Origin: Bdellovibrionales bacterium
Lineage (GTDB): Bacteria > Bdellovibrionota > Bdellovibrionia > Bdellovibrionales > JAUICD01
Length of the DNA stretch: 64,000 bases
Direction of reading: 5' to 3'
NCBI GenBank assembly: GCA_965262715.1
Contig: OZ253553.1
Span: forward strand, 2,560,001-2,624,000
Part shown: piece after piece, positions 29,828-50,629 of the stretch
Layout of the letters: each line of letters starts with the position of its first letter
How positions within the stretch are numbered: position 1 is the stretch's first letter
Position numbers and translations under genes: made by a program
The notes under the pieces: generated by a model
Seen by the model: only the letters and a program-made list of their open reading frames with translations
Told to the model about the DNA's origin: nothing
Database searches by the model: none

Positions 29828-30796
29828 TTATTTTGATAAAAGAAAAATGGGGTATTCTTCAATAGGTTTTTCACGTATAAAACACCTGTAATATTGTTGC
29901 ACATACAGAAATATAGAGTCTTTGTGATCTAATATTTCCTTCAGCAGCCACTCTACATAAGGTTTGCTCTTTTTCCCAAAAAGGCGATATTGCTTATTGA
30001 CCATTAAAAAGTCTTTCTTCTTAATTTGCTCAAGGTTGTGTGCTTTTTTGATGCGGCCATCAATAATGGGGCGGAAAGGCTCCATCACATCACAGACCAG
30101 TGATTTTCTTTGATAGAAACATTTATGATAGACACCTTTGTAAATATCAAAACCATAAAGATCAAGCAGACTTCCAATAAAGTTAAATAGAATTGTATAG
30201 CCTGTATCTTGCAGTGAATTAATAGGATCATGTTTGACTCTAGGTCTTCGGATCATCCAATTGCAGTCTTTAAAAAGTATCTTAAAGTATTCTCTTGCAG
30301 CAATTCCTTCAAAACCTAATATATGGGATAATTCTATTTCATTTTGTGTTAAACTAGACTTGAAGTCTTCCAATCTTTCAATTGTATTTTTGACATCACT
30401 GTCTTTCTTACGAATTTTTTTGAGAAGAAGGCTTTGATTTTCTATTTTATTTTTCACCAAGTGACAAGCGATAGCAAGGGATGTGTAGTTATATTGTTTT
30501 TCTCTTAGAAGAAAATTCCCTTCAGTTTTTGCTCTCCAGACTCCATAGGGACGCAGACTATATGTCATAAAAACAATTGTAAATCCAAATCTTTCAGATC
30601 TTTGAAGTAATCCAGATGTTATCGTGATATTCCCTACAATATAAAGAACAAATAATCGATAGCACGTTGATTGATGTATGGTTTCATCATCACTGTTTTT
30701 GATAACGAGGTTATCATTTTTAAAGCTTAGCTTTTCTCCTTTACTTGTAAAGACAAAAATAATTTGTTTTTCTTTAAAATCAGGAAGACTCAACAT
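29828..30796 (-). CDS. cas1: Type V (PREFRAN-like) Cas1
   Basis: GFEGIAAREYF, DPINSLQDTGY, SLVCDVMEPFR. Confidence 0.95.
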   Translation of the reverse strand: MLSLPDFKEKQIIFVFTSKGEKLSFKNDNLVIKNSDDETIHQSTCYRLFVLYIVGNITITSGLLQRSERFGFTIVFMTYSLRPYGVWRAKTEGNFLLREKQYNYTSLAIACHLVKNKIENQSLLLKKIRKKDSDVKNTIERLEDFKSSLTQNEIELSHILGFEGIAAREYFKILFKDCNWMIRRPRVKHDPINSLQDTGYTILFNFIGSLLDLYGFDIYKGVYHKCFYQRKSLVCDVMEPFRPIIDGRIKKAHNLEQIKKKDFLMVNKQYRLFGKKSKPYVEWLLKEILDHKDSIFLYVQQYYRCFIREKPIEEYPIFLLSK

Positions 30797-30799
30797 AAC

Positions 30800-31363
30800 T
30801 TAAGCGGCCCTTTTATCACAGAGGTTGGAATAAATGCACCGATTGCATTTTTTTGGATTTGCCTTAAACGGAGCATTTAAATCAAAAGCATTGATCTCAT
30901 TAATTAACTTTTCAAACTTTTCTTGCATCGATTGGTTATCTTTTGGCAGAGGTATAGGGTAGCTTTTATTTGTATCCATGCTGTACAAACGCAACTTTTT
31001 AACTTTATAGCCCATTTCTTTCAGGCAGTGATATTGCGCATAAAGCTGGAAAATATAGCCATCATAAATAGTTTTGATCATTTTTTTACGTTCTGTCAGA
31101 AGTCCTTCAGCTTCATCAAAAATATCAATTTTGCCGTTAAGTTTATAGTGATCGGAATAGACAGAGATACCTTGAAGAACTGTTTTTTTGGTGCTGTATT
31201 TTTTATGATCAATGCTTTTGTGAGCTATTTGACCCTCAATTTGTGGTTTTTCTTGATACATCCTTTGCTCAAGATGGCTATAAAGCCCATGAAAGAAGAT
31301 AGACCTTGGACAAAAGATAAAGTCATTCAGGAAAGAGATGAGTATATAATTCTCCATTTTCAT
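30800..31363 (-). CDS. cas4: Type V (PREFRAN-like) Cas4
   Basis: LNDFIFCPRS, GKID, ERK, QLYAQ, CNRCIYSNLC. Confidence 0.95.
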   Translation of the reverse strand: MKMENYILISFLNDFIFCPRSIFFHGLYSHLEQRMYQEKPQIEGQIAHKSIDHKKYSTKKTVLQGISVYSDHYKLNGKIDIFDEAEGLLTERKKMIKTIYDGYIFQLYAQYHCLKEMGYKVKKLRLYSMDTNKSYPIPLPKDNQSMQEKFEKLINEINAFDLNAPFKANPKKCNRCIYSNLCDKRAA

Positions 31364-31998
31364 TCACTCTGATTTTCATGTTTAAAAAAAATTTTCTTTG
31401 CAATTCTTCCTGAAGAACGACAGGATAAACCATCAACACTTGCTCCAATAACTCCACCAACAAAAGGAATTCCTTTACCTAGATTGATAATACCCTTCTC
31501 TCCAAACTTTGTGACCAACCTAAAACCTACAAGCCGGTTTATTTCTATTAAAGTTTTTCCACTGATTGAAGTAATAACTTTATGAGTGAGTTTTTCACCT
31601 ATTTTTACTCCCATTTTTTTAAAAATATCCATACATGCATCGCCAATTAAACAAGCATATGTTAGAGTCTTCACTTGCTCCTCAGAAGGATTATATCCTG
31701 ATATTTTTGCAATGATTGCAACCATACGCATTTGAATATAAAAAGATGCTGCTAATCCACAAGGAACGGCTACAGGTAAAGTGATTATTCCTCCTAAAGA
31801 AGATAAAAATCCAGAAGATGCATTTTTTGCTATAGCCCATTGAATGACAGATTCAATAGCTTTTTCTTTATTATTATTGTGATTGCTTAAATATTTTTCT
31901 GCTTCATCTTTTACAGGTGATGCGCCAGGCAATCCTTCTAAAGCATTATCATATATAGAATCCAAAATTTTAATGATGTTCTTTTTATTAATTTTCAT
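31360..31998 (-). CDS. EcsC family protein within the cas operon
   Basis: GFLSSLGGIITLPVAVP, YIQMRMVAIIA..GY, INRLVGFRLVTKFGEKGIINLGKGIPFVGGVIG; overlaps both neighbours. Confidence 0.85.
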   Translation of the reverse strand: MKINKKNIIKILDSIYDNALEGLPGASPVKDEAEKYLSNHNNNKEKAIESVIQWAIAKNASSGFLSSLGGIITLPVAVPCGLAASFYIQMRMVAIIAKISGYNPSEEQVKTLTYACLIGDACMDIFKKMGVKIGEKLTHKVITSISGKTLIEINRLVGFRLVTKFGEKGIINLGKGIPFVGGVIGASVDGLSCRSSGRIAKKIFFKHENQSE

Positions 31999-34900
31999 CT
32001 GACTTTGACTCCTTGGATTCTTTGTGATTCACATTGGTCTTGATTTGCATAGTTTTTAAGACTGCAAAAGGCTGGTTTGTCAAGTTTTTTGAATATGGAT
32101 TCTTTGAAGCTATTTTATGATGATTTCTTGATGAACCATTTTTTTGATCTTTTGTTTTATGCCATTGTTTCTTGATTTTGTATTGATTGTGTTTGCTTTG
32201 AGGGTTTTTGTGTTTAGCAACCCGTTGGTTATTTTTGTTTTGACCTTGCTCTTGTCCATAAAAACTTTTGCTATTATGTATTTGTTCTCTAGTTTCAGAT
32301 GGTAGAAACTTCCATTTTCCAATTTCACTACTATCTTTAATCTTTTTGGCAATGTTATAAGCTGCCACTTTATCAGGATCATTAATATCTTTAAGGAATT
32401 CAAATTTCTCATTATAGAAACTTGGCTTGACCTCTGGGGTATAGTCTTTTTCCCTTTCTTCTTCAGTTTTAAAAGCATAAGTATCAAATCCACATGACTG
32501 GCATCTAAAACGTTTTTGTTTAAATTTCTCGTCATTCTTTTCTTTGTGTGTCTGCTTTTCTTCACAATAAGGACAATTCTTGCTTGTGTTAAATTCATCT
32601 ACAAAAACAATAGCTCCAATTTGTGAAGATCTAATGGATTCCTTATTGTCTTTTTGTTGTTTCCGAACATCTTCTCTTAATTGAATGATGTCTTTAACAT
32701 GAGGAGGGACCAAACTCAAAGATTGAAATTTATTATATAGAGCGACTTCTAGCCTATTATAAATATTGTCATTTTCTTTAGTTTTTCCTTTTTCTAAATC
32801 TTCTAAAAGAATAAATCCAGGGTAAGTTTTATATAGATAAGAAATTACTCCTACTATATTAGCAGTAAGAGCATTTCGTAAGTGATTGATTTGTAAAATA
32901 CTCGGTGTATGTCTTTCATCTTGACTTTTTAGTTCATCAAGATAACGATTCAAATCTTTTTCAATGCATTTTTCAGAAATAATGTCTTTATATTTATTAC
33001 AATAGTGGTAAATAGCTGTTTCTGGGTCTTCTCTATTAGCCCCTATATTGATATTTAAAACTCCTTCTGGATGATGTTGTTTCGACTCCTTACCATTTTT
33101 ATATTCAAATTTATATTTACTCCATTCTAATTTTGCTGTTGAATCGACTTGCCCTTTACCATAAAGTTCATACAGTTTACGTTTAGCTGATACTTTTTTA
33201 AGCTTAAGGTAAGTCCTCACATCACCATTAATAACGATTTTTCCTTTAATGACTTTAGCTGTTGTCAAATCCAGACAAGAGGTAGGTTTGATGTCAAAAA
33301 GTGATTTGTATTTGTCATCTATAAAATAAGAAAGGTTGTCAATAGCTCTTTGATGTGTTTTTTCTCTCTGCTTTCCATCATCAAAAAGGATTTGATAGTT
33401 ATAATCTTTCAAAGTGTAGCATTCAATAGAAGCAAGTTTTGATTTTACAACTTTTTTGTCATTAGCTTCATAAATATCTTGATCAAGATTAAATTGAGCA
33501 AGGCATAAGGTCGCAAGTTCAGTTTGGCCTCTATCAATTCCATACTTCCAAGCTGTTTTAAAATCTTTTTCAGAATTGAACTTTGCATTGAAACCATTTA
33601 TTTTTTCGCATAAGTCTTCAGGCTTGGCAAAGGCCAAATCTTCATATTTGTTGCCTGCATTGAGTGCTAAGGTCAATCCTATTGTCAACTGTTCCTGTTT
33701 CTTTCGGTGCTTAAACTTAGTAGGAAAATCTTTGTTGTTAAGGTATTTTTCCAAAGCATCATCAGCCCTCCGGTATCTGATTTTAACTTCAGGATTGAGT
33801 CGTACCTCTCCAACAGGAAAGTTTTTCACTGTTGCGGTTTTATCTGGTTTATCAATATTTTCCCAAAACACTTTCCACAAATCGGTATGATATTTATTTT
33901 TACTAGCAGGTGTTTGATGTGTGTTTTTATTCCTGCCTTCTAGATCATAAGAAGTCATATTTAAGACTGTCACATCATGATTTTTGATAAAGTTTTGTTT
34001 TTCTTCCTCATTAAGAGGTATTTCTTTAACGTGGTAGCAAGCACGTTCTAAAGCTTTTTCAAACTCATTAAACTCCTCAGTTTGATGTACCTCTTGCAAG
34101 TTACTAAAATGTTTAAGCTGTAGGGTCTTTTTTTCATCACTTTCAGGTAATCCCTGTTGCCATTCTAGTACTTTTTTAAAAAATTTTAATTCCTCTTCCT
34201 TTTTTCTTTCTCTTTTTTGTTCACTACTTTGAGAGAATGCTTGATTATTACTCTCTTTTTTATTGATTGCTTTGGTTTTTGTTCGAAGATCTTTTAAGTA
34301 GTCTGGCATTGCTTCAACAAAAGTGCTTTGTTCTGCAAAGCAGAGTTTATGTAAGGCTCTCATAGTTAGGGATTCAAAACAGCAAAGATATGGACATCCT
34401 AAACTGTTGTTTTGTTCAGCAAGTTCATTAATATCTTTCTTTGCATCTTGCATTTTGTCTTTAGGTATAAGCCATAGTTTTTTATGATCATTTTCTACAT
34501 AGATCAAACTCCAATAGCTTGTTTGCTTTGCTTCTTCTTTTTCTTTTTCAATGCCTTTAATTTGAGCAATAAGTTTACCTAGTTCTTGTGCTACTTTTTT
34601 GTAACCTTCACAAAAGTTTCCATATTCTGCGAAATAGCAATTTTTGCCAAATAGAAAGTCCCTCCCTCTTTTTTTTGCTGTATCTCTCTTTTTTTGACTA
34701 TCTTGTTCTTGTTCTATATTTCGAGTTAATTCTATAAATTCGTTGTATTTTTCTTCAGCTTTTCCTGTATAATACTTATTTTTATGCTTATTATCGAATT
34801 GAAACAAAGAAAAAGTTTGATTAATCCCTTCAAGATCAAACTGCTCATAACCTAGTTTATATTCTTTAAGTAAATGATTTTTTTTGACTTCATAACTACT

Positions 34901-35992
34901 ACCACTTTTTTTATCACTGGCAATGTGTTTCATCACTTCATAAAAAATAGATTTTTGCTCTGCTTTAAAAGCTTTCATAGCATGGTAAGTTTGATCTAAG
35001 GAAAGCTCCACTCTATTTTGAAGATCGCCTTTTATTTTATATTCATTGCTTTCGTCTTTATTGTACTTATCAATATACCTTTCAAGCCATTTCTTTTCTA
35101 AATCACTCTTAAAGGTAAGTATTTTTTGATCTTTTTGGCCATTTTTATTTAAAGTATGCCAAATATAACCATTTTTATTTTCTATTTTTGAGCAACATTC
35201 TTCATACCTTCTTTTTTCTAATTTTGCTAATTTATTCTCATAATAATCTTTTGGTTTTTTGTTAACGGTGTAATAATTAAAGCTTGCTTTGGCAATTTCA
35301 ATGCCGGAGGAGTCAGAGGAAAGATAGATTTGCTCTGCTGTTTTTAGATCTTTTTGTAATTGCTCTAAATCACTTTTTAAGCTTTTAATTTGATTATCTA
35401 AATTTGATTCAGATGTATGAGCTTCATTTAAAAAAGCTTGAATATAAGGTAGTCTTTTATTATTTAAAAACCATCTAATGAGATAAGCTATATCACTATG
35501 ACGCGCTTGAAATTCTTTTAGCTGTTGAGAGTATCTTTTAAGCTGATCTACTTTCTCTTTCCAATTCTCAAGCCACTTTTTTAAACTTTCATCTTCATGT
35601 ATGAGTTCTAATTCCTGAAGTTTGTACTTACCATCTTTATTTCTTAGATTCTTGATGGAAGCATGAAAGATATTTTTATGCCAAACTTTTAGCCAATTTT
35701 TACTTACAGATAACTTCTTATTGAATTTTGGTTCTTTATTTTTGGCATCCTCTTTATCATCATCATCTGTTTTGTGAGAAAAAAACAATAATTTTCCTAG
35801 ACCTGTATAAACTTTCAATAAAAGATTAGATAATTCAGGTATATCAACTTGAGATTTATCCCATTGTAGTTTTTTTTGAAAACATTGACTTTGGCTTTGT
35901 GGCTTAACTTTAAAACGGATGGCGCGGGTGTATTGATAAGGATTATCAAAACCATTTTCTTTTAGAGTAGTAGTAGAACTTTCTTCCTTCAT
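31988..35992 (-). CDS. Cas12a2/Cms1-related type V effector, Smithella-like clade (Cas12a3-like)
   Basis: YTRAIRFK start; SSGIEIAKASFNYYTVNKK; FESLTMRALHKLCF; RLNPE; RuvC GIDRGQTELATL / LLEDL / DPDKVAAYNIA; DLTTAKVIKGKIVINGD; Zn ribbon CPYC...CQSC. Confidence 0.88.
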   Translation of the reverse strand: MKEESSTTTLKENGFDNPYQYTRAIRFKVKPQSQSQCFQKKLQWDKSQVDIPELSNLLLKVYTGLGKLLFFSHKTDDDDKEDAKNKEPKFNKKLSVSKNWLKVWHKNIFHASIKNLRNKDGKYKLQELELIHEDESLKKWLENWKEKVDQLKRYSQQLKEFQARHSDIAYLIRWFLNNKRLPYIQAFLNEAHTSESNLDNQIKSLKSDLEQLQKDLKTAEQIYLSSDSSGIEIAKASFNYYTVNKKPKDYYENKLAKLEKRRYEECCSKIENKNGYIWHTLNKNGQKDQKILTFKSDLEKKWLERYIDKYNKDESNEYKIKGDLQNRVELSLDQTYHAMKAFKAEQKSIFYEVMKHIASDKKSGSSYEVKKNHLLKEYKLGYEQFDLEGINQTFSLFQFDNKHKNKYYTGKAEEKYNEFIELTRNIEQEQDSQKKRDTAKKRGRDFLFGKNCYFAEYGNFCEGYKKVAQELGKLIAQIKGIEKEKEEAKQTSYWSLIYVENDHKKLWLIPKDKMQDAKKDINELAEQNNSLGCPYLCCFESLTMRALHKLCFAEQSTFVEAMPDYLKDLRTKTKAINKKESNNQAFSQSSEQKRERKKEEELKFFKKVLEWQQGLPESDEKKTLQLKHFSNLQEVHQTEEFNEFEKALERACYHVKEIPLNEEEKQNFIKNHDVTVLNMTSYDLEGRNKNTHQTPASKNKYHTDLWKVFWENIDKPDKTATVKNFPVGEVRLNPEVKIRYRRADDALEKYLNNKDFPTKFKHRKKQEQLTIGLTLALNAGNKYEDLAFAKPEDLCEKINGFNAKFNSEKDFKTAWKYGIDRGQTELATLCLAQFNLDQDIYEANDKKVVKSKLASIECYTLKDYNYQILFDDGKQREKTHQRAIDNLSYFIDDKYKSLFDIKPTSCLDLTTAKVIKGKIVINGDVRTYLKLKKVSAKRKLYELYGKGQVDSTAKLEWSKYKFEYKNGKESKQHHPEGVLNINIGANREDPETAIYHYCNKYKDIISEKCIEKDLNRYLDELKSQDERHTPSILQINHLRNALTANIVGVISYLYKTYPGFILLEDLEKGKTKENDNIYNRLEVALYNKFQSLSLVPPHVKDIIQLREDVRKQQKDNKESIRSSQIGAIVFVDEFNTSKNCPYCEEKQTHKEKNDEKFKQKRFRCQSCGFDTYAFKTEEEREKDYTPEVKPSFYNEKFEFLKDINDPDKVAAYNIAKKIKDSSEIGKWKFLPSETREQIHNSKSFYGQEQGQNKNNQRVAKHKNPQSKHNQYKIKKQWHKTKDQKNGSSRNHHKIASKNPYSKNLTNQPFAVLKTMQIKTNVNHKESKESKSDEN

Positions 35993-37531: not shown

Positions 37532-40500
37532 CTAAGAAGATTTTCTTAGTTTATAATTTTTTGGGAAACATCTTTTTTTTGACCTCCCAACTACTTTCTC
37601 CGATTGAACGTAATTTTGCCATTTGTTCTTTTTAACAGCTCCTAATTTTAATTTTTCAATATCTTCTGACTTTTTGATTTCCTCTAAAATACAAATACCT
37701 TTCCTTGCAATGTTGTAAGCACCATTGGCATCTGAATCTACCGGCAATTTTGCAGTTTTAATTTCACCGACATACCGACTATCAAAAAAAGGTTCAACAG
37801 GTGAGAGAATATAATCCAAATCACCATCATTAACTCGTATATTCAAAATAGCATTAAAATACCTGGCCATCTGCTCATGCAAATCAACATTATTATTTTG
37901 TGCAAGCTGTCCTTTAATACACTTGCCATCTTGATAGCTGATCTCATGCTTTTTTAATAAACTGACTAGCTCTTTATGAAGATCATAGACATGAGTTATT
38001 TTCTTATCTCTATCATAATAAGAGCGGGTCACATTACTGCATACAGTCCACTCTTTTCTTTTAACTTCAAGATCTTCTTTTTGTTGTCTTCCAGATTGCT
38101 TCACTTTGCTAATATCATAGGTAAACTCAAAATAATCTTCCTTTGTATTAAACTGAATGCTATTAAAACTATTCCAAAAACTTTGAGAATCCTTTAAATT
38201 TGTATAACTATAATGAGTATTTTTTAAAAACCCTGTAATAGGATCTGTTGTTGATGTATAGCTAGCTGTTGTATAAAATAAAATACCGCTCTGTTTGCCC
38301 AATTTTTCAAAACTTTTAAATGGTGCAGCTAGTTGATAAGCCTTAAGATAATGACCAGACTGCCCTTTAGGTGCATTCTTAAAAACTAAATAATTTAGTT
38401 TATCTATAAGCGTCTTTTCAAACTTTTGGTAGACTTGCTTTTCAACTTTAAAACGTCCTCGCTTAAATCCAAAATTTAAATCCTCTAAAACAACGATGGC
38501 ATTATATTTTATGATAAGCTGTGAAAGTTTATGAACCACTTGTGATAGATAACCGTCCTTTAATTCCTTGATGTTTTTAATGTGAAACCAATTCTTTCTA
38601 GCACTATCTCTTTCTTTTCCCTTCTCATCTAGCTTTTTATGGTAATCAATAGCTTTACCCGTATGAGTATTTGTAATGCTATTAAGAGTGTCTTGCTCTA
38701 TAATATCACCATTTTGATTGATAATAGAATAATAAAGTAGGTTTTTTTCTCCTCTGTCAATACCAATGATATTAACCTTACTATGCTGCTTTTTTAAAAA
38801 CTTGTTTATCTCTATATTGGTATCTTTATTTTGTGGATTATTAGGCCGTTTGTAATTAAGAGTGATTGGAACATGAAAGAAAAACTTATCCTCACTATAC
38901 CTGCGGTCTTTTAATATAGGATATTTGAATTTTCCTTTTAAACTTTCTGTATGGTGTCCCTCTGTTTTTTGTTTGTCTGTATATTTAATAGAAGCTGGAC
39001 GGAAGAAAATCTCTGCTTTACCATTTAACTTAATCGTATCACCTTGACTTTTTGCTTTGCCGTTGAAAAGCCGAATGACTTTACCTTCATTTTTCTCTTG
39101 AAATAGACCTTTCCAGTACAGAGTATGAAGGTTATCCTTACCTTTTGATTTTTTGTTTAAAGAAAAGTCTTTGTTATAAATCTCAAAAAAATACAGCCAA
39201 CCTTTTTCTATACAGTAATGAATGTAGTCTACGGATACATCCTGAAATGTGACTTTGTAACCTTGATGTTCTACTTCACGATAAAAATCACTTAAATCAT
39301 TATAGCTTTCTGTGCGAGAAAACTTGAAGTTAAAATGTTTCCAGTCCGAATGCTTTAAAATAGAAGCTTTGAAGAAGTCAATCACTTTGTACATATCGTG
39401 TTGATTAAACTCCTTCTTTTTAAATTCACTTTTAGGCTGTCCATCCTTTGTATGACTAGCATGATTAATTATTTTTAAAATCTCTTTTGAAGGAGAGTAA
39501 TCTTTAATATTCTTTTTGCTAAAAAAGACTTTAGGTAGCATTTTGTTAGCACCCGGTAAGAGTTTATAAACCATCTTCTGGTAGTTGCCATTCTCTTTTG
39601 AAGAAAGATGTGTCTTTTTATCTTTAAGTTCAGTGATTCTTTTTTGATGTTCTTCTAATTTATTTTTAATTTTTTGATAAACTAGAGCACCTTCCTTTTT
39701 TGTATTAAGTAGCTCTTCATCTTTTAATATTAATTCTCTATATGTTGTGATTTGGTTTTTTATTTCTTTAAAATCTATATTCTCAAACAAAGTCCTATGC
39801 TTTTTATCCATAACTCCAAGAAAGTACTGTTGATCTTTGATAAACAGTACGCAGCTATTATCTACTTCTTTATTTTGATCCCAGCCATTTGCAAGTGTAG
39901 GGTTTGCAAAATTAACTTTGACTTTATCCTTACTATAAGGCTTTTGCGTGATCCAATTGCGAGCCTTATTGTAAAGATGCATAACGCCAAACTGATCACT
40001 AAATGTTTGAAGAAACTCTTGCCACCTTTCACCTTCACTACTTTGCTCTTGTTCTTTTAAAAAGTCTTTTTCTCTCACTTGTAAAGTTCTCACAAAACTG
40101 GATAAACTAAGGCAGGCATCAAGAAAGTTTTGTATTAAAGCAATCTGTTCCTTTCGCTTTTTTGGTTTTTTGCTAAGTTCATCAAGGTTTAAAATACCCT
40201 CTTTATTTAATTTATCAAAAGATTCTTTGATACTAAAAATCTTCTGACCATTTTGATCCTTTCTTACTTCTCCGCTGATCAATGCTTTTAATTCTGTATT
40301 GATATAATCCCTGATCAATTTTTCAAGCTTCCATTCTTGCCATTTTTTTGTTATGAGACTTTTGTTTTCTTCTTGAATATAGCTAAAAATATCTTGGATT
40401 TCTTTAAATGATAAAAGCTTCTTCTTATATTCTTTAGTTTGATGGCTTTTAGAAAGATTGTGTTTTCCAGTGATATGCTTCTGCCACCAAAAGTTTAAAG

Positions 40501-41755
40501 TGTTCCAGTGACCACAAGTTTCTATAGATAGGCTTTTTATTTTTGCTCTACTGAGATAATGAAACTTTAAGTCAGTTTCTTCTAATAAATTCAAATGGTT
40601 TTTGATCTCTTTTTGTAAAAGACTTGGTAACTTCTTTTTTTTATTATGAAACATTTTAATGGTATTTAAAAATTCCTCGTCACTATCAAATACATCCATA
40701 AAGACACTGTCATCTTCACTAAGGATTTGTTTGTAGAATTGCTGCATGCCAGGAAAAGACTTGCGATCAGACTGGTTTTTTTGATAAGTTAAATTAATGA
40801 TTTCATTTAGGCCTTGCACTTTTTGAGTACCAGCCATTGCAGGACTGCCGCCTAAAATTTCATTGTATTTATCAATACCCGATTGAGAGAAGTAATTAAG
40901 AAAACCAGCAGGTTTAAATAGTTCATTGAGTTTAACTGTAACCTGTTTTTCTAAGGTGTTGATTTCTTTTTGAAAGTTCTTTTTGTTGGTGCTTGAGACT
41001 TCATTTAGACTTTTAGTGATTGTTTGCCATTTTTGGATATTCTTAAAATGAAACGGTAAATTTTGCTCAAACAAACGATAGGCTATAGATGTTGAATGAA
41101 GATTCTTACAGTCATAAATATTCTCACGGTTATCATGAAATCCTTCAAAATAAGTACTGAAACTCTCAAAAGGTTCACAGCTTTTTTCTAATTCATCTTT
41201 GGTATATGGAGTTTTATCCCTTTTTTGAACTTCAATAACCTTATCATCTCTGTTTTGATCTTCTTCTATTATAGTTTTTAAAACTTTAAAAATGGAAGCT
41301 GAAAGCAATAACTTAATGCCTTTCTTTTTCTTATTAAGTGAGTATTTAGACTCCCAATCATTAATAGTGTCATTAAAAAGATCTCCTAACTTTTTAGCTT
41401 GCTTTTTTTGATGGCCTTGATAGTTTTTATGATTTTCCTTTCTTTTTTCCCATGCTTTATAAAAATCATCTAGAAGTTTATTGTTAAATGTCTTTTTAAC
41501 TCGACTTTCAAGTAATGCTTCCCTTATAAACTGTCTATGCACATCATCTAATATTTCTTTCATGACTTTGTAATCTTCAGCTCGCTTTGCATCTTCACCA
41601 AAAATCTCATTGCTGTTTTTTTGCCATGTAGCTCCAATTATTCCTGCTGTTTTAATATGCTTTGTTGTGTTTCCAATAGGTCTAAGTTCAAATTTTAGAG
41701 TTTTATTTAAAGAATATTGATGGGTGAATTGATCAAAAATACTATTACTGCTCAT
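37532..41755 (-). CDS. cas12a: Type V-A effector Cas12a (Cpf1)
   Basis: FTHQYSLNKTLKFELRPIG, GWDQNKE, YKLLPGANKMLPKVFFS, IIGIDRGE, VLEDLNFGFKRGR, DSDANGAYNIARKG. Confidence 0.97.
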   Translation of the reverse strand: MSSNSIFDQFTHQYSLNKTLKFELRPIGNTTKHIKTAGIIGATWQKNSNEIFGEDAKRAEDYKVMKEILDDVHRQFIREALLESRVKKTFNNKLLDDFYKAWEKRKENHKNYQGHQKKQAKKLGDLFNDTINDWESKYSLNKKKKGIKLLLSASIFKVLKTIIEEDQNRDDKVIEVQKRDKTPYTKDELEKSCEPFESFSTYFEGFHDNRENIYDCKNLHSTSIAYRLFEQNLPFHFKNIQKWQTITKSLNEVSSTNKKNFQKEINTLEKQVTVKLNELFKPAGFLNYFSQSGIDKYNEILGGSPAMAGTQKVQGLNEIINLTYQKNQSDRKSFPGMQQFYKQILSEDDSVFMDVFDSDEEFLNTIKMFHNKKKKLPSLLQKEIKNHLNLLEETDLKFHYLSRAKIKSLSIETCGHWNTLNFWWQKHITGKHNLSKSHQTKEYKKKLLSFKEIQDIFSYIQEENKSLITKKWQEWKLEKLIRDYINTELKALISGEVRKDQNGQKIFSIKESFDKLNKEGILNLDELSKKPKKRKEQIALIQNFLDACLSLSSFVRTLQVREKDFLKEQEQSSEGERWQEFLQTFSDQFGVMHLYNKARNWITQKPYSKDKVKVNFANPTLANGWDQNKEVDNSCVLFIKDQQYFLGVMDKKHRTLFENIDFKEIKNQITTYRELILKDEELLNTKKEGALVYQKIKNKLEEHQKRITELKDKKTHLSSKENGNYQKMVYKLLPGANKMLPKVFFSKKNIKDYSPSKEILKIINHASHTKDGQPKSEFKKKEFNQHDMYKVIDFFKASILKHSDWKHFNFKFSRTESYNDLSDFYREVEHQGYKVTFQDVSVDYIHYCIEKGWLYFFEIYNKDFSLNKKSKGKDNLHTLYWKGLFQEKNEGKVIRLFNGKAKSQGDTIKLNGKAEIFFRPASIKYTDKQKTEGHHTESLKGKFKYPILKDRRYSEDKFFFHVPITLNYKRPNNPQNKDTNIEINKFLKKQHSKVNIIGIDRGEKNLLYYSIINQNGDIIEQDTLNSITNTHTGKAIDYHKKLDEKGKERDSARKNWFHIKNIKELKDGYLSQVVHKLSQLIIKYNAIVVLEDLNFGFKRGRFKVEKQVYQKFEKTLIDKLNYLVFKNAPKGQSGHYLKAYQLAAPFKSFEKLGKQSGILFYTTASYTSTTDPITGFLKNTHYSYTNLKDSQSFWNSFNSIQFNTKEDYFEFTYDISKVKQSGRQQKEDLEVKRKEWTVCSNVTRSYYDRDKKITHVYDLHKELVSLLKKHEISYQDGKCIKGQLAQNNNVDLHEQMARYFNAILNIRVNDGDLDYILSPVEPFFDSRYVGEIKTAKLPVDSDANGAYNIARKGICILEEIKKSEDIEKLKLGAVKKNKWQNYVQSEKVVGRSKKRCFPKNYKLRKSS

Positions 41756-42041: not shown

Positions 42042-42230
42042 CTATTTTTTAAGTTTTTGAAGTTGTTGGATTGAAAGATTTGTTATTTTGGCAATAAATT
42101 GCAGTTCCATATTTTGCTCTAACATCCGCAAAGCCACTTTTTCCATTCCTTTCTCTATTCCTTTCTCTATTCCTTTCTCTATTCCCTTTTCTATTCCTTC
42201 ATCAATCAATCGATCATAAGTGCTTTTCAT
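42042..42230 (-). CDS. Nested in-frame small ORF, RpnS-like antitoxin, 62 aa
   Basis: Internal AAGGAGGAG followed by CAAGCA-ATG starting MKSTYDRLIDEGIEKG. Confidence 0.7.
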   Translation of the reverse strand: MKSTYDRLIDEGIEKGIEKGIEKGIEKGMEKVALRMLEQNMELQFIAKITNLSIQQLQKLKK

Positions 42231-42989
42231 TGCTTGCTCCTCCTTACTTCTAATAATCTCATTTTCAATCTCTATAAATTCCTCTTTTGAGTAATTTGTA
42301 CCTTGAAGCATGTATCTTCCTAAAATGTCAGCATTCTCTTGATAGTTTGGGTCCTTACCATCTTGATAACACATCTCAAATATAGACTTGATCTTATCCC
42401 GTGTCATATTCCAAATGTGTTTGAATGCAAGACAAAAACTTGCTATATCTCCAGCCTTATCTTTAATATCTTCATCAGGTCTCTGATTTAAATCTACCAC
42501 ATTCAATCTAAAATTGAAACTCTCAGCACCAAAAACCTCTTTTAACCCCTTTGACCAACCAAAAGCCGATTGTAAATCAGAAGGAAGATTTAAGGGTTTT
42601 TTACCATGAACTAATAAAATAGTGGTGATAGGGTAAATATGACTTTCTAAAAGAGCTACATTGTACTTTAAAGCTTGTAGAAAAATCTTTCTCTGTGGCT
42701 CAATATGACTCTTATGCTCAACAATAACTGCGACTAAAAGATCTGTACCTATTTTTGCTTTTTTTAAATTCACTTTTGCAATAATATCTGCCCGACATTT
42801 TTGAATATCTCCACTGGACTGTTTTCTAAGAAGCTCTGTGTCAATAAACTCTATCTGATCTCCAGCAATGACATTAAATTTTTTAGGATCTAATGCAAAC
42901 TTTAAAAGCTGTCTAAAACGATCTTTATTCTTAAAAGCTAATTTAAATATCTTATCATGATCAATTTGAAAATCTGTATCCCTAGACAT
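42042..42989 (-). CDS. Rpn / YhgA-like PD-(D/E)XK nuclease (putative transposase family)
   Basis: HDKIFK, RADII, VEHKS, C-terminal (GIEK)n repeats and IAKITNLS. Confidence 0.9.
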   Translation of the reverse strand: MSRDTDFQIDHDKIFKLAFKNKDRFRQLLKFALDPKKFNVIAGDQIEFIDTELLRKQSSGDIQKCRADIIAKVNLKKAKIGTDLLVAVIVEHKSHIEPQRKIFLQALKYNVALLESHIYPITTILLVHGKKPLNLPSDLQSAFGWSKGLKEVFGAESFNFRLNVVDLNQRPDEDIKDKAGDIASFCLAFKHIWNMTRDKIKSIFEMCYQDGKDPNYQENADILGRYMLQGTNYSKEEFIEIENEIIRSKEEQAMKSTYDRLIDEGIEKGIEKGIEKGIEKGMEKVALRMLEQNMELQFIAKITNLSIQQLQKLKK

Positions 42990-43040
42990 AATATCCCTCT
43001 TTCTATGAATAAAAAATAAACTTCAGGTATAACTTTCAGT

Positions 43041-43056
43041 AGCAAAAGTAATGCCA
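43041..43056 (-). promoter_or_regulatory. sigma54-like promoter upstream of the rpn gene
   Basis: Minus strand TGGCATTACTTTTGCT, GG-N10-GC, about 50 bp before the ATG. Confidence 0.55.
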
Positions 43057-43059
43057 AAT

Positions 43060-43446
43060 TTTTATTGGCTAAAAAGTGGTTTTAAGAAGATTTAAGAGAA
43101 CTTAAGAGAATATTTGTCTTAATGGTTGGACACTAAAGCTTAAATCCCGGACATGAAAGCACGTTTTTTAGAGAAAGCATTTCTGTCCATAATAACAATG
43201 ATTCAATAAAATGAGAATATAAGATATTCTAATATGATGATATAATGAAGTTGGTTTTTATGAGTAAGAGTGTTATATTAAAATAAGGTCTTTGACAAAA
43301 AAATAGTTTTCAAACTTAGGAAAGCCTGTTTATTGCAAACCTTGGTTTTAATATTATTTGTAGGTATCATAATGGCAAAATTATTGATTTTAAAATTTAT
43401 TTTTGTTTGTTTATTTGGTGAAACCTACTTATTTTGGAGCTTATGT
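43060..43446 (+). promoter_or_regulatory. CRISPR leader
   Basis: AT-rich non-coding region 5' of the first repeat; degenerate repeats lie at the opposite end. Confidence 0.7.
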
Positions 43447-46400
43447 GTCTAAGAAGACTTATTAATTTCTACTATTGTAGATGAAACAAAGCGTTCTTTA
43501 TTTTACTCAAGTCTAAGAAGACTTATTAATTTCTACTATTGTAGATTGCATAACGGGGATTTAGTATTCATCTGTCTAAGAAGACTTATTAATTTCTACT
43601 ATTGTAGATATAGTCATTATCTCGCTCTGCAAATCCAGTCTAAGAAGACTTATTAATTTCTACTATTGTAGATCCACTGACACTTCTATACATTTTAAAG
43701 TCTAAGAAGACTTATTAATTTCTACTATTGTAGATAGACCTGAGACCACACCAGGCAAACAAAGAAGTCTAAGAAGACTTATTAATTTCTACTATTGTAG
43801 ATAGATTCAATCTATCATATCTACGCACGTCTAAGAAGACTTATTAATTTCTACTATTGTAGATCAATACGCTTTCTTTTCAGCGAGTCTCGTCTAAGAA
43901 GACTTATTAATTTCTACTATTGTAGATCTGAGTAAAAAGACTCATTAATAATAAATGTCTAAGAAGACTTATTAATTTCTACTATTGTAGATAGTTTAAC
44001 ATTTCATTCCCTTTGCCCTGTCTAAGAAGACTTATTAATTTCTACTATTGTAGATAAGAATAAGTTTTATTATTTCTTTTTCATGTCTAAGAAGACTTAT
44101 TAATTTCTACTATTGTAGATACTGATGATAACTCCAGCGATTCTTGGTCTAAGAAGACTTATTAATTTCTACTATTGTAGATGAACTCTAATTTTGAATG
44201 CTACAAGGGTCTAAGAAGACTTATTAATTTCTACTATTGTAGATAACCCCCTTGCGCTCTGCGCGCTGTTAAATCTAAGAAGACTTATTAATTTCTACTA
44301 TTGTAGATTGATATAAGTTTTGCGCCCTTCAGTTGTCTAAGAAGACTTATTAATTTCTACTATTGTAGATAGTGTTAGAACGACTGTAGCTTTATCTTGT
44401 CTAAGAAGACTTATTAATTTCTACTATTGTAGATTGACATTCCAGTTCAAAAGCGATGTCAAGGTCTAAGAAGACTTATTAATTTCTACTATTGTAGATT
44501 CATCTAATATTTCTTTTTCTGTTTTTGGTCTAAGAAGACTTATTAATTTCTACTATTGTAGATAATCATTTATTCCCCCTATCTGTGTCAGTCTAAGAAG
44601 ACTTATTAATTTCTACTATTGTAGATTGACATTCCAGTTCAAAAGCGATGTCAAGGTCTAAGAAGACTTATTAATTTCTACTATTGTAGATTCATCTAAT
44701 ATTTCTTTTTCTGTTTTTGGTCTAAGAAGACTTATTAATTTCTACTATTGTAGATAATCATTTATTCCCCCTATCTGTGTCAGTCTAAGAAGACTTATTA
44801 ATTTCTACTATTGTAGATTTTCAATGGTGTTGTTTGCAATTATGTCTAAGAAGACTTATTAATTTCTACTATTGTAGATTCACCGACTATCTCATGCATC
44901 TTTTCGAGTCTAAGAAGACTTATTAATTTCTACTATTGTAGATTTGATGAAGATGGAAATTTTCAGGGTAAGTCTAAGAAGACTTATTAATTTCTACTAT
45001 TGTAGATTTATCAGCACTAACTACCTGTGTAAATGTCTAAGAAGACTTATTAATTTCTACTATTGTAGATACTCTGTCTTTTAGGTTTTTAACTTTGTCT
45101 AAGAAGACTTATTAATTTCTACTATTGTAGATTTAGAAACCTCAAATAATTCCCAATAAGTCTAAGAAGACTTATTAATTTCTACTATTGTAGATCTTGA
45201 ATGACAGAGGGATGTGTATAAGTCTAAGAAGACTTATTAATTTCTACTATTGTAGATTGAAGCTGGATAAACTCCATCAATTTTGTCTAAGAAGACTTAT
45301 TAATTTCTACTATTGTAGATAATATCTTTATTTGCTCTTTTTCTGTAGTCTAAGAAGACTTATTAATTTCTACTATTGTAGATCCATCTAACAAATCTTC
45401 CCTAGTTTTCTGTGTCTAAGAAGACTTATTAATTTCTACTATTGTAGATATAGCACACATATTATGTAGATGACTAGTGTCTAAGAAGACTTATTAATTT
45501 CTACTATTGTAGATGGAAAAAAGATACAGATCTATTTGTCTGTCTAAGAAGACTTATTAATTTCTACTATTGTAGATGAAATGTTAGCGGTGTATTTTTA
45601 TCAAGTCTAAGAAGACTTATTAATTTCTACTATTGTAGATTGATACGGGTATTCTTCCAATCTTCGGGTCTAAGAAGACTTATTAATTTCTACTATTGTA
45701 GATAAGCATCACGGAAAGACTTCTTGAGGTCTAAGAAGACTTATTAATTTCTACTATTGTAGATCTAATCATGTTGGTACGATTCTGAATTGGTCTAAGA
45801 AGACTTATTAATTTCTACTATTGTAGATATATAACAATACTACAAATCCAGCAGGTCTAAGAAGACTTATTAATTTCTACTATTGTAGATTAATCATATT
45901 ATCCTCCTTTTATTACGTCTAAGAAGACTTATTAATTTCTACTATTGTAGATATGTTAGTGCATTTCAGTCAGATTTTGTCTAAGAAGACTTATTAATTT
46001 CTACTATTGTAGATACATCGTTAAACATTGTTTTTAAAAAAGTCTAAGAAGACTTATTAATTTCTACTATTGTAGATAATAATAAAAGGTCTCTCACTTC
46101 ACAGGTCTAAGAAGACTTATTAATTTCTACTATTGTAGATGGTCTAGGAACACTGGAAGGTTTTGTGGGTCTAAGAAGACTTATTAATTTCTACTATTGT
46201 AGATGTAAGAAGCTCTTGCACTGGTTTTAGGTCTAAGAAGACTTATTAATTTCTACTATTGTAGATTTATGCTAGGACATGATATTTATAAGGTCTAAGA
46301 AGACTTATTAATTTCTACTATTGTAGATCATTTGTAGGTTTCGAATTTGTCTATTGGTCTAAGAAGACTTATTAATTTCTACTATTGTAGATATGTGCTA

Positions 46401-47205
46401 TCGCTTGTCTCAGGGCTTGGTGTCTAAGAAGACTTATTAATTTCTACTATTGTAGATCTGAACAACTATGGTCAGCCAGATTACAGTCTAAGAAGACTTA
46501 TTAATTTCTACTATTGTAGATGCGAGCGTGAGGTCCCCAGTAGCGGTTAGTCTAAGAAGACTTATTAATTTCTACTATTGTAGATAACTCAATATCCGCT
46601 GCTTTAACATGTGTCTAAGAAGACTTATTAATTTCTACTATTGTAGATTTAGGGATGTCTCACGATAACCCTAAAGTCTAAGAAGACTTATTAATTTCTA
46701 CTATTGTAGATCTAAAGGGGGGGTTCGAATCCCTCCCCAGTCTAAGAAGACTTATTAATTTCTACTATTGTAGATCATAAAGAGATTTCCACAGACGACA
46801 AGTCTAAGAAGACTTATTAATTTCTACTATTGTAGATTACCTAGAAGTCTGTTTACTTGAGCAGTCTAAGAAGACTTATTAATTTCTACTATTGTAGATA
46901 ATTGTTACTTGTCCTATATCATGTGGTGTCTAAGAAGACTTATTAATTTCTACTATTGTAGATACGTGTCTAACACGACCGTCAGACTCAGTCTAAGAAG
47001 ACTTATTAATTTCTACTATTGTAGATACCAATAATAAGTTTTACTTACATCTGGTCTAAGAAGACTTATTAATTTCTACTATTGTAGATACCAATAATAA
47101 GTTTTACTTACATCTGGTCTAAGAAGACTTATTAATTTCTACTATTGTAGATGTAAAAATTGACCTTTCGCTTGATCTGTATGTCTAAGAAGACTTATTA
47201 ATTTC
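43447..47205 (+). CRISPR. Type V-A array: 59 complete repeats GTCTAAGAAGACTTATTAATTTCTACTATTGTAGAT plus a truncated 60th; spacers about 25-31 bp
   Basis: Counted by eye; canonical Cas12a handle AATTTCTACT-ATT-GTAGAT; repeat 14 (~44273) begins with A instead of G. Confidence 0.98.
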
Positions 47206-48435
47206 GATCTTTCACTCAAAATGCCTCTTGCTTCTAGCAACTTTCTGGCAGTAAGCTCGACGACTCTCGTCGTCGTAAAAAGCTTACTGCCTAGAAAGCT
47301 TGAGGCATTTTTACTAAGGAGGACTTCCTCATTCCTTAACACTATGTTAAGGAAATCGTTGTTATTTACCATAGTCAGCCTAATGGTTCACACCATCAGT
47401 AAAATGGTCATTGCCTAGAAAATCTGTTCCTTTTGAGTAAGAAGATAGCCTTTGCTTTTTACATCATGTTAAGGAACCAGGTTTTCTAACAAGCACTCAA
47501 ATCTTCATAGTAGGTTAAGGTTTAGCTTTATAGTAAGAAAATGACTTTTTGCTTCTATTATCGTACATATAACTATTGTCATATATATCTCAGTGTCTAA
47601 GAAGACTTATTAATTTCGATCTTTCACTCAAAATGCCTCTTGCTTCTAGCAACTTTCTGGCAGTAAGCTCGACGACTCTCGTCGTCGTAAAAAGCTTACT
47701 GCCTAGAAAGCTTGAGGCATTTTTACTAAGGAGGACTTCCTCATTCCTTAACACTATGTTAAGGAAATCGTTGTTATTTACCATAGTCAGCCTGATGGTT
47801 CACACCATCAGTAAAATGGTCATTGCCTAGAAAGTTTGTTCCTTTTGAGTAAGAACATATTCTTTGCCTTTAACATCATGTTAAGGAATCAATTTTCTAA
47901 TTAATTTCTACTATTGTAGATTAGAGCTTCGCCAGTTATGGGGTTAAAGTCTAAGAAGACTTATTAATTTCGATCTTTCACTCAAAATGCCTCTTGCTTC
48001 TAGCAACTTTCTGGCAGTAAGCTCGACGACTCTCGTCGTCGTAAAAAGCTTACTGCCTAGAAAGCTTGAGGCATTTTTACTAAGGAGGACTTCCTCATTC
48101 CTTAACACTATGTTAAGGAAATCGTTGTTATTTACCATAGTCAGCCTGATGGTTCACACCATCAGTAAAATGGTCATTGCCTAGAAAGTTTGTTCCTTTT
48201 GAGTAAGAAGATAGTCTTTGCTTTTTACATCATGTTAAGGAATCAAGTTTTCTAACAAGCACTCAAATCTTCGCAGTAGGTTAAGGTTTAGCTTTATAGT
48301 AAGAAAATGACTTTTTGCTTCTATTATCGTATATATAAATATTGTCATATATATCTCAACGTCTAAGAAGACTTATCAATTTCGATCTTTCACTCAAAAT
48401 GCCTCTTGCTTCTAGCAACTTTCTGGCAGTAAGCT
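47183..48435 (+). mobile_element. Array trailer: four repeats interrupted at base 23 by a family A composite element
   Basis: Repeat 5' halves at 47183, 47595, 47949 and 48361, each followed by GATCTTTCACTCAAAATG; 3' half resumes at 47900-47921 with duplicated ATTAATTTC. Confidence 0.9.
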
Positions 48436-48610
48436 AAGGTTTAGTCTTATATCTGTTGCTGTTGCTATTTCGTAACTTCAAATCGTAAGTGCAACTCTTT
48501 TGTGTTTATAGATATTTTTAAAAGTTGTATCATTTTAGGATTAATATTCCAACAAAGTTTTAATTATCATAAAAGATTATTGAAATTTATTTTATTTGAA
48601 TGGATGTATT

Positions 48611-48686
48611 TTGATGTTTATGGCAAAGTCTCGTAGTCCTCGAGCTATCGCTCTGCGGAAGAACGATTCTTTGCCATAAACATCAA
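48611..48686 (+). repeat. Structured motif, family B
   Basis: TTGATGTTTATGGCAAAG...AGTCCTCGAG...CTGCGGAAGA...CTTTGCCATAAACATCAA. Confidence 0.7.
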
Positions 48687-48760
48687 GCTGTCAAATGAGA
48701 TATTCATTAGCAGAAGTTATTATATATAAGTGACATTAAATGGATAAACTATGAATGACT

Positions 48761-49713
48761 TCAGCAAACCATCTTCTGCCTATGAAACTCATTAGGACTT
48801 AGAAATCCTAAACTCTTTCGAGGACGATGGTTTAAAAGAACTTCAACTCTTTTTACATCCTTTTGAGTGATCTTTCTGAAGTCTGTCTTCTTTGGAAAAT
48901 ACTGACGGATTAAACCATTTGTGTTCTCATTTAAACCTCGCTCATAAGAACTGTAAGGATGTGCAAAATAAACTTTACATCCGGTATATTCACTGATCTG
49001 CTCATGACACGAAAACTCTTTACCATTGTCTAATGTGATCGTATGAACAATCTCTCCTTTAAGAGCTTTAGAAATAGAAAAACAGCTTCAGATCTCTTAG
49101 ATCCTATTTTGAAGATCCTCGTCTTCTTAGAGCATCTATCTACAAGAGTCACTAAAGCTCCCTTGTGATTTCCTTCTATCATCAGATCACCTTCTATATC
49201 TCCTATCCGTATCTTCTTATCTACTATCTGAGGCCTCTTATCAATACTCACTCTATTCTGTATCTGACCCCTTTTATCAAATCTACTTGTACCATATCGC
49301 TTCTTCCGTTTTTTCTGACATCTTAAAAATTTGTAGAGAGAACCTCCTACTTTCTTATCCTTTAGAATATGCTGGTAAATACTCTCGTGACTTACAAATA
49401 AACCTCTTTCACGAAGATAACCACAAATCTGTTCCGGACTCCAATAACAACAACGAAGAAACTTCTCAATCCTACGAATAACTTTCTGTGTTATCTTTAT
49501 ATGTCTATGAGAATTCTTCAGACGATAAGAGGCTTTTTCATGGGCTTGGTGAGCGCGATATCCACGCAAACCTCTATTACGATTCATTTCCCTATATAAC
49601 GTGCTTTTATCTCGACCTAACTGCTTTGCAATTGAACTTATTGATTTTCCACTTCTCAAAAGTGCTGAAACCTGATACCTTTCAACTTAGGTTAGATGAG
49701 TGTACTTGCTCAT
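48761..49713 (-). pseudogene. IS30 family transposase pseudogene
   Basis: MSKYTHLT* (early stop), WSPEQI, EGDL, frameshift near 49080, then TLDNGKEF, YFAHPYSSYERGLNENTNGLIRQYFPK, LNHRPRKSLG. Confidence 0.92.
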
Positions 49714-49984
49714 GGAATACTCCTTTCATTATTTAAAGCGTATGGACTAGAGTATTCCTCTAACCCACTTTAAACAACTAGGCAAGGAGTTGCACTTACA
49801 GCTTGAATCCACCAAATCTAAAATCCTTAATCAAATGAAAACTCCGGCTTCCATGATAACCTAAATAATTTAATCTCAAAAATATAAAAAATACTCACCA
49901 ATATCTCTCTAGCTAAATCCTTCTGCAACAAAGCCTTTAAAAGAAATAAAAAATCATCTTATATCTTTAAAAAGTAAAGGATTT

Positions 49985-50629
49985 ATGTTATCAAGAAGAG
50001 AAGGCTCAACAAGTATAGGGCATACTCTAGAACAGGAACTTGGGTTAACTGAAAATAATTTAGCTATTCCCGATATAAGTGGTCGTGTAGAATTAAAGGC
50101 AACTCGAAAAAATTCAAGTTCACTGATAACATTATTTGCTTTTAATAAAGCCGTTTGGAGAATTCACCCAAAAGAGGTTATTGAGAAATATGGTTATATT
50201 GATGAAAAAAGTCGTCAAGCTCTACAGTCAAGAGTCTCCTGTTCTCGTTACAATTCACGGAATTTAAAAATTGAGTTAGATAAAATAGATCATAAAGTTC
50301 ACCTGTATTCTAATACAGAAGATTTGCTTGCAACATGGAATATTTATACAATAGTAGGAAAATTTATCTCTAAATTCGAAAAATTATTGATTGTTTTCGC
50401 AGATACTCGACGTGTTCATGGTAAAGAAAGTTTTTTATTTAATGAAGCATATCTTCTTAAAGAGCCACTTCCTGAATGCTTTCTAAGAGCTTTTGAAAAT
50501 TCTCAAATTGTGATTGAGCTGCGCATGTATTTAAAAAACACAGGTAGTGTAAGGAATCATGGAACTGCATTTCGTATTAAAGAAAGCGATATAATTCATT
50601 TATATAAAGATAAACAACAAATTTTGTGA
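49985..50629 (+). CDS. MvaI/BcnI family restriction endonuclease-like protein
   Basis: IGHTLEQELGLTENN..PD..ELKA, SLITLF, RNHGTAFRI. Confidence 0.85.
   Translation: MLSRREGSTSIGHTLEQELGLTENNLAIPDISGRVELKATRKNSSSLITLFAFNKAVWRIHPKEVIEKYGYIDEKSRQALQSRVSCSRYNSRNLKIELDKIDHKVHLYSNTEDLLATWNIYTIVGKFISKFEKLLIVFADTRRVHGKESFLFNEAYLLKEPLPECFLRAFENSQIVIELRMYLKNTGSVRNHGTAFRIKESDIIHLYKDKQQIL

Follow-up and report, generated by a model that had tools for sequence, protein, structure and literature searches.

A genus-limited family of 145-nt structured repeats with a bias for terminal CRISPR repeats and tRNA ends, revealed by an amplified junction behind a type V-A array

We find that four irregular units behind a type V-A CRISPR array in a Bdellovibrionales genome (G000) are a real structure, that they are the amplified debris of one junction, and that they reveal a 145-nt repeat family measurably biased toward tRNA ends and toward the terminal repeats of three CRISPR types. 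What is new here is that members of this family lie flush at trailer repeats and at tRNA and tmRNA 3′ ends. The units fall in the window, the 64,000-nt stretch of DNA analysed (contig OZ253553.1, positions 2,560,001 to 2,624,000), on which an earlier note had offered two readings, a mobile element that targets CRISPR repeats or one insertion amplified by array recombination. The second is supported by our results, while the first survives only in a wider form, as an enrichment at terminal repeats (three CRISPR types, two species) and at tRNA ends.

The array (43447..47182, plus strand, leader on the left) holds 59 complete 36-nt repeats at 43447-47152 with their spacers, and its leader-array stretch aligns to an array of the congener G001. 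A cas12a gene accompanied by cas1 and cas4, and an array with a AATTTCTACT-type handle, place the system in type V-A. All on the minus strand, cas1 (29828..30796) and cas4 (30800..31363) score above the cut-offs of TIGR04329 and TIGR04328, cas12a (37532..41755) matches TIGR04330 at 980 bits and carries RuvC, REC, PI and NUC domains, and an Rpn/YhgA-like gene (42042..42989, PF04754) occupies the interval between cas12a and the leader. A second type V effector of 1334 aa (31988..35992, minus strand) is Cas12a3-like, of the Cas12a2/a3/a4 group; it matches PDB Cas12a3 chains at E 4e-72 and 7e-62 as well as PADLOC Cas12a models, and its G001 ortholog is 50% identical. The two effectors have one array and one cas1-cas4 module in common, and they also occur together in G001, where cas12a is broken and its front part missing. 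Cas12a3 is reported to cleave tRNA CCA tails (PMC12851939, accessible text). Two paralogous small genes (31360-31998 and 36865-37275, minus strand), one behind each effector, match PADLOC PDC-S29 and are possible auxiliary genes, the longer with a marginal EcsC Pfam match. Within the array, a three-spacer block (44399-44782) and a single spacer (46991-47116) are duplicated, a mark of repeat-mediated recombination, and one spacer (45196-45221) equals the host genome over 26 of 26 nt at G000:C1:156807-156832, in a 410-aa ORF and antisense to its mRNA; the letters upstream of this target, TTTC AT, leave the PAM register ambiguous.

Beyond the array, 23-nt repeat starts recur on the plus strand at 47183, 47595, 47949 and 48361 (the last with one T>C), spaced by 412, 354 and 412 nt and each followed by GATCTTTCACTC, so that all four break at one base, as the earlier note had reported and the coordinates confirm. 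Unit 1 consists of a degenerate 26-nt repeat (R*, 47183..47208), which we read as a repeat that has lost the 10 nt TACTATTGTA of its handle, a probable deletion that G001 supports; a family doublet (47210..47476) of one full module at 47210-47355 and one 5′-truncated module at ~47373-47476, identified by BLAST and HMM matches; and a tail T of ~107 nt (47489..47594), which genome comparison places only in units 1 and 3 and at a paralog locus. Unit 2 again has R* (47595..47620) and the doublet (47622..47888), here followed by the last 22 nt of a repeat with a complete Cas12a handle (47900..47921) and by a 27-nt spacer stranded between units (47922..47948). Unit 3 (47949..48360) is built of R*, doublet (47976-48242) and tail T, while unit 4 (48361..48466) is a variant R* with the first 48 nt of a module, joined through GCAGTA to a diverged piece of tail T, probably by deletion. 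Of the four copies of a structured insert claimed earlier, unit 4 has only 52 nt past its repeat start. The trailer is closed by an IS30-family element (48467..49817, minus strand), recognized by its inverted arms, by NF033563 and by its genomic copies, ~22 of them near full length genome-wide.

In unit 2, the word ATTAATTTC at 47609-47617 is repeated at 47900-47908 as the first 9 nt of the repeat end, and the complete handle runs to 47921; overlap, rebuilt handle and spacer are all present as first described. The overlap is an exact 9-bp duplication, but it stops short of the family ends: within the 282-nt insert, the two modules are preceded by 4 additional nt and followed by ~11. The insert folds much better than shuffled sequence (z -9.8), and a terminator-like stem closes the first module of units 1-3. 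Its outer ends indeed lack terminal inverted repeats, but the family modules show an imperfect terminal inverted match of 9 nt, with 7/9 the commonest score among 263 copies. Folding predicts that the crRNA of the 47922 spacer could still mature, as had been suggested: the stem of the rebuilt handle has a pairing probability of 0.93, and 0.86-0.96 in context, against a median of 0.91 over the 59 normal repeats. The first 20 nt of this spacer give 0 exact matches among viral contigs.

Short-read assemblies support these junctions. Mismatch-free Logan contigs extend over 47826-47978 in runs X1-X4, which are one sample, possibly the source of the assembly and so not independent, and 47667-47943 in X5, which comes from another study; contigs from X1-X5 bridge the repeat end of unit 2. 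Contigs of X2 also bridge the junction of tail and repeat between units 3 and 4 (48302-48401) and carry letters private to unit 1 and to unit 3. The X1-X4 contigs begin at 47826, 30 nt ahead of the first letter private to unit 2, and X5 contains an unbranched 277-nt unit-2 contig at a depth of 3.1, compared with 2.4 for unique flank. No contig piece from X1-X5 spans all four units, and stretches lacking contig cover in X5 or X6 (tail T, units 1, 3 and 4, and the array body) are left out as evidence. Differences between copies had been taken to speak against mis-assembly, and they do, as the units differ by 4-8 substitutions in the element and the short-read contigs carry private letters and junctions. 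In wider searches, the exact repeat-element junction had 0 matches in metagenome contigs and a tandem-element pattern 0 in viral contigs. A looser repeat-plus-element pattern returned chance matches, at least 118 loci each in metagenome and genome contigs; among the 236 loci listed, one carries the element, with letters identical to the G001 trailer and so not counted as independent, and one further locus proved to be a chance leader match.

The inserted sequence belongs to a dispersed family. BLAST of the insert against the G000 genome gives 527 matches in 188 loci, and a 145-nt profile built on 82 full copies picks up 462 matches, 263 of them near full length, amounting to 2.0% of the genome; only 17 of the 462 fall within ORFs. 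The consensus folds as a three-way junction with compensatory change at 26 of 31 predicted pairs across the 82 copies. The element contains no ORF and has no Rfam match at E up to 5, and an Rfam scan of 42500-50000 yields only a chance hairpin match within the IS30 end. The family is also dense in G001 (261 matches over 455 kb), has no match in plasmid or phage collections, and is present in 3 of 384 genomes of its order; it is genus-limited. The third of these genomes, G004, has 12 copies on three small contigs (C1, C4 and C11) and no tRNA with a flush-docked copy. Those loci are 85-92% identical to G000, compared with 66-73% for the large contigs of G004, so that the small contigs are likely foreign, misbinned DNA of a close G000 relative by their identity levels, and G004 is rejected as a third host. 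Taken together, these results point to a likely small mobile element with a preference for the edges of non-coding RNA genes, not to a new CRISPR component. Family membership, a single origin of the units and the enrichment at RNA-gene borders are shown by the data, while mobility, a single-stranded intermediate and the order of events given below are what we infer.

The units trace to a single origin. Six units in G000 share a locus-private doublet and non-consensus flanks; the five long ones differ pairwise by 1-14 substitutions over the element, and those in the window by 1-8. Elsewhere in the genome, the best match to the doublet reaches 81%, and tail T occurs in units 1 and 3 and in one paralog unit and nowhere else. 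In unit 4, a short word common to both links the element start to the diverged tail T fragment, and because that fragment is retained, a second-position unit once ran into T and not into a repeat. The four units, and the six in the genome, are one event, amplified, as one of the earlier readings had it; independent insertions are rejected because the private flanks and doublet are shared and the best other match is 81%. The two further units are found at a distance of 86 kb, next to a decayed cas12a/rpn/tfoX paralog (G000:C1:2693535-2699326) that retains only the two ends of cas12a, an rpn fragment and a tfoX remnant, with no leader and no array. Its flank carries 5% substitutions, compared with 1.5-3.4% in the units. 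purM lies beyond this locus, and purF and purL beyond the trailer in the window; metB and purF synteny with G001 disclosed no empty site for the paralog locus.

The break in the repeat is better read as a terminal repeat. The earlier note placed the break after AATTTC, and the position is right, but the GAT beyond it is the last 3 nt of the repeat, so that what looks like half a repeat may represent a terminal repeat minus 10 handle nt, with the element 1 nt behind it. Comparison with the trailer of a related genome, which the note had recommended, finds array ends of the same architecture on a different repeat. The G001 Cas12a is ~50% identical, and its V-A array ends with a repeat minus 3 handle nt (GAT kept), then 4 nt, a doublet, an unrelated tail, and repeat and element start once more. 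Both ends, with losses of 10 nt in G000 and 3 nt in G001 and no handle stem in predicted folds, have the character of degenerate V-A terminal repeats, and among native terminal repeats of V-A arrays, 11 of 14 are reported to have handle-disrupting changes (Liao et al. 2019, PMC6610086, accessible text).

The association with array ends extends to other CRISPR types. In the I-F variant arrays of G000 and G001, so labelled from a Cas7fv-like match below cut-off, the element lies antisense at the trailer at an identical repeat base, with 24 nt of the own-genome repeat on either side and one repeat copy 4 nt short. Three near-identical repeat-element-repeat cassettes surround the G000 I-F-variant locus (G000:C1:476720-476925, 482092-482302 and 490431-490641), one of them with the array. 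A third G001 array, which we take to be III-like from its repeat end and period, stops 4 nt short and runs straight into the element, with no second repeat copy beyond. An element is flush at the trailer repeat in 2 of 6 G000 arrays (background 1.8%, p 0.004), collected by a periodic search for exact words in which small arrays may be overlooked, and in 3 of 4 G001 arrays, sought beside its four cas1 loci (background 6.4%, p 0.001); these p values assume independence, and the V-A and I-F loci are common to both genomes. All five cases (V-A, I-F variant and III-like) are at the end away from the leader, and the other four G000 arrays and one G001 array have no element within 700-800 nt. The four V-A and I-F cases may be two old events with later conversion. 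In a tree on 145 columns, many of whose forks are unresolved, the modules at array sites form no clade, each falling among copies from its own genome, a grouping that fits separate events but that within-genome conversion could mimic.

A second group of sites lies at tRNA genes. In G000, counted after dropping four unassigned tRNA-like repeats, elements start within 7 nt of 5 of 35 tRNA and tmRNA 3′ ends, where the background is 0.2% and 13 of 2153 stop codons are so placed. In G001, 3 of 33 tRNA 3′ ends are docked (background 1.0%, p 0.004), two further tRNAs adding no 3′ case, and the tRNA contrast is narrower there because stop codons are also docked (8/323). Only tRNA-Asp is docked in both genomes. 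Same-strand copies in G000 lie 1-5 nt from the tRNA, after which the distance jumps to 825 nt, and outward-pointing elements abut three tRNA 5′ ends in each genome. We find no general preference for hairpins: dyad symmetry adjoins the tRNA and CRISPR sites, but genome-wide only 1 of 180 leading copies lies behind a GC-rich stem, compared with 0.4% of controls, and the upstream folding energy of copies equals that of controls. Three tRNA loci in G000 deserve separate mention. A tRNA-Pro at G000:C1:2823905-2824100 is interrupted by a family element and lacks part of its middle, and ARAGORN detects only a single further tRNA-Pro genome-wide. Next to the element at tRNA-Asp, on its far side, is a gene for a 590-aa protein in which a retron St85-type effector domain is fused to an RT (G000:C1:2650522-2652294). 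The intact tRNA-Trp gene is preceded by four tandem near-copies of its positions 1-72, all lacking CCA (G000:C1:2198524-2198955).

No duplication of fixed length marks the family. The earlier note proposed that genomic copies be checked for 9-bp duplications, and among 126 isolated full copies not one is flanked by a flush duplication as long as 7 nt, so 9 bp is not the family rule; duplications of 4-6 nt occur in 35, compared with 20.7 in shuffles, with no single length standing out. A longer recurrence is seen in G000, where the upstream flank (24-42 nt) recurs downstream in 17 of 143 leading copies versus 1 and 2 in controls. The element start follows the recurring flank in 7 of the 17, and both V-A trailers are among the 17. 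Among 99 G001 copies the flank recurs downstream in 8, upstream in 9 and in reverse complement in 5, and the polarity seen in G000 is not reproduced. Clean duplications are those of 24 nt in the I-F arrays and 30 nt at the tRNA-Pro-derived site.

No mobiliser was found among the RT, Y1, IS-end, bracketed-ORF and Rpn candidates. The family lacks the fixed short target duplication of a classical MITE, and the ends of 8 multi-copy IS-like families in G000 are unlike the element (one further family yielded no ends). Reverse transcriptases (three in G000, of retron and group II types) and Y1 transposase or RAYT proteins (PF01797; one IS200 TnpA in G000) were rejected, as none of either was found in G001, which is 90% complete. 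None of 11 ORFs bracketed by elements looks transposase-like by eye. Rpn genes, with 19 in G000 and 16 in G001, were also set aside, since the element-free genome G003 has 16.

The explanation we favour, and hold to be probably right though with real reserve, is that the four units are copies of one junction between a handle-less last repeat and a doublet, that the family is non-autonomous and docks flush at tRNA ends and terminal repeats by way of a single-stranded intermediate, and that the unit was amplified by recombination. The element would have landed 1 nt behind the terminal repeat, and a 10-nt deletion would have removed the handle of that repeat, as usually happens to terminal repeats of Cas12a arrays. 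The upstream flank, that is the repeat, and the element start would then have been duplicated downstream, as at other family sites, giving R*-element-tail-R*-element. Next, the preceding repeat may have received a copy of R*-element by way of the 23 nt with which both begin, the copy rejoining at repeat position 15. This step would explain the 9-bp overlap, would leave the 47922 spacer with its handle intact, and would make the unit-2 overlap a secondary junction. One more unit would have been added, likely by recombination between direct repeats, with unit 4 shortened later by a microhomology deletion. Because docking occurs on both strands of tRNA genes, this scheme predicts an enzyme that acts in trans on folded single-stranded DNA. 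A bolder version, tentative and on the whole doubtful, holds that the insertion machinery actively reads non-coding RNA borders (mature tRNA ends, the last repeat of any CRISPR type) as safe landing sites, that duplication rebuilds the target and leaves arrays and tRNAs functional, and that the enzyme belongs outside the tested RT, Y1 and IS families.

The main rival, which we consider unlikely while taking it seriously, makes unit 2 the founder: the doublet would have inserted inside a repeat, directly behind AATTTC, and created a genuine 9-bp target duplication, while conversion of neighbouring repeats would later have given rise to units 1, 3 and 4 and the paralog copies. The exactness of the overlap favours this account, as does the fact that the family sits inside its target with a rebuilding duplication in the I-F arrays and at tRNA-Pro; YPAL duplications span 3-26 bp (PMC2229807, accessible text), and the unbranched, near-single-copy X5 contig, which reads through letters that set unit 2 apart from units 1 and 3, is compatible with a strain that carries just unit 2, although its depth is only ~3. 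Against a founding unit 2 stand the absence of such flush duplications from all 126 isolated copies, the repeat end GAT past the break, which G001 retains likewise, and the three other units that run into tail T, unit 4 retaining a piece, for which several non-homologous joins would be needed. The 9-bp duplication could still have been the founding event at this one locus.

Distinctly improbable, in our judgement, is that selection kept the element at array ends to serve as a terminator or, by its structure, to prevent extraneous crRNA from the last repeat. The five array cases all fall on the trailer side, the terminator-like stem closes the first module of units 1-3, and terminators, hairpins and repeat mutations are reported to cancel extraneous crRNA (PMC12080349, accessible text). 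However, orientation varies between arrays (antisense in I-F), 5 of 10 arrays have no element, copies also stand at tRNA 5′ ends and point away, and the tRNA-side distances are sharper than termination would need. A guide taken from the element start behind an intact repeat has 52 near matches in the genome, 0 of them with a TTTV PAM, and Cas12a self-targeting by extraneous crRNA is accordingly rejected. We give still less credence to the capture of free element copies by Cas1-Cas2 as oversized spacers in young arrays, later left at the trailer: the I-F element does fill a slot between two repeat copies, and the three cassettes around the G000 locus have this form, but one I-F repeat copy is 4 nt short, the III-like array lacks a second copy beyond the element, and the same docking is found at tRNA genes.

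A dedicated CRISPR-repeat-specific element that inserted four separate times is hardly credible; the one base shared by all four junctions is what such an element would leave, but the private flanks and doublet common to the units, with no better match elsewhere than 81% over the doublet, contradict it, 0 of the 59 upstream repeats are hit, and most of the 462 family matches are far from any CRISPR array. Least believable of all is an assembly artefact, for which the want of a read or contig across all four units might be cited, but which would have to account for unit-private letters and three kinds of junction in 0-mismatch short-read contigs, one from another study, and for the same architecture in G001.

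Set beside known systems by their descriptions, the favoured reading appears to make the family work most like the Yersinia YPAL elements (YPAL/RU-2; De Gregorio et al. 2006, described in PMC2229807 and PMC2759123), and we class it as working like them, not as a member. Both are small (168 versus 145 nt), abundant, intergenic repeats with internal stems formed by inverted repeats and no TA termini, and they may also have in common duplications of variable length and targets at or next to dyad symmetry; the accessible text of the two papers names no mobiliser, and we found none here. YPAL/RU-2 differs in lineage (Yersinia/Erwinia) and base composition, and unlike it our family has a covarying three-way junction, duplications of 24-60 nt in a minority of copies, and a preference for terminal CRISPR repeats and tRNA ends that does not extend to hairpins in general, such targets being absent from the accessible text of both papers. 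The handle stem is destroyed in G000 and G001 as in the degenerate V-A terminal repeats of PMC6610086 (accessible text), but in our case a mobile-type repeat is joined to the degenerate one and amplified with it, and one live repeat-spacer unit is stranded among the copies. REPIN/RAYT systems (PMC8049555, accessible text) likewise form a persistent population of extragenic hairpins that also amplifies locally; the present family has a larger, branched fold, and no RAYT-like gene is common to G000 and G001. Group IIC introns also insert at DNA stem-loop motifs such as terminators and attC (PMC4424553, accessible text), whereas the 145-nt element, with no ORF and no Rfam match, lacks a ribozyme core with an RT ORF. 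Prophage integration into CRISPR repeats (bioRxiv 10.1101/2020.10.09.333658, accessible text) is a further case of a mobile element lodged in repeats, but in the present family there is no integrase or cargo, tRNAs are docked as well, and the array stays usable. Neither this family nor the docking of small repeats at terminal CRISPR repeats is described in the papers that a literature search returned, most subscription papers lying outside its scope.

How small non-coding repeats of the YPAL and REP kind move and choose their sites is largely open. If the element merely drifts and gathers at old array ends, what we describe is ordinary genome wear. Two closed genomes supply five CRISPR sites, covering three types, and more than a dozen sites at tRNA ends, all with junctions readable to the base; a target rule thus becomes testable, and the units behind this V-A array illustrate one route by which CRISPR trailers gain long structured “spacers” that could be mistaken for new array-linked RNA.
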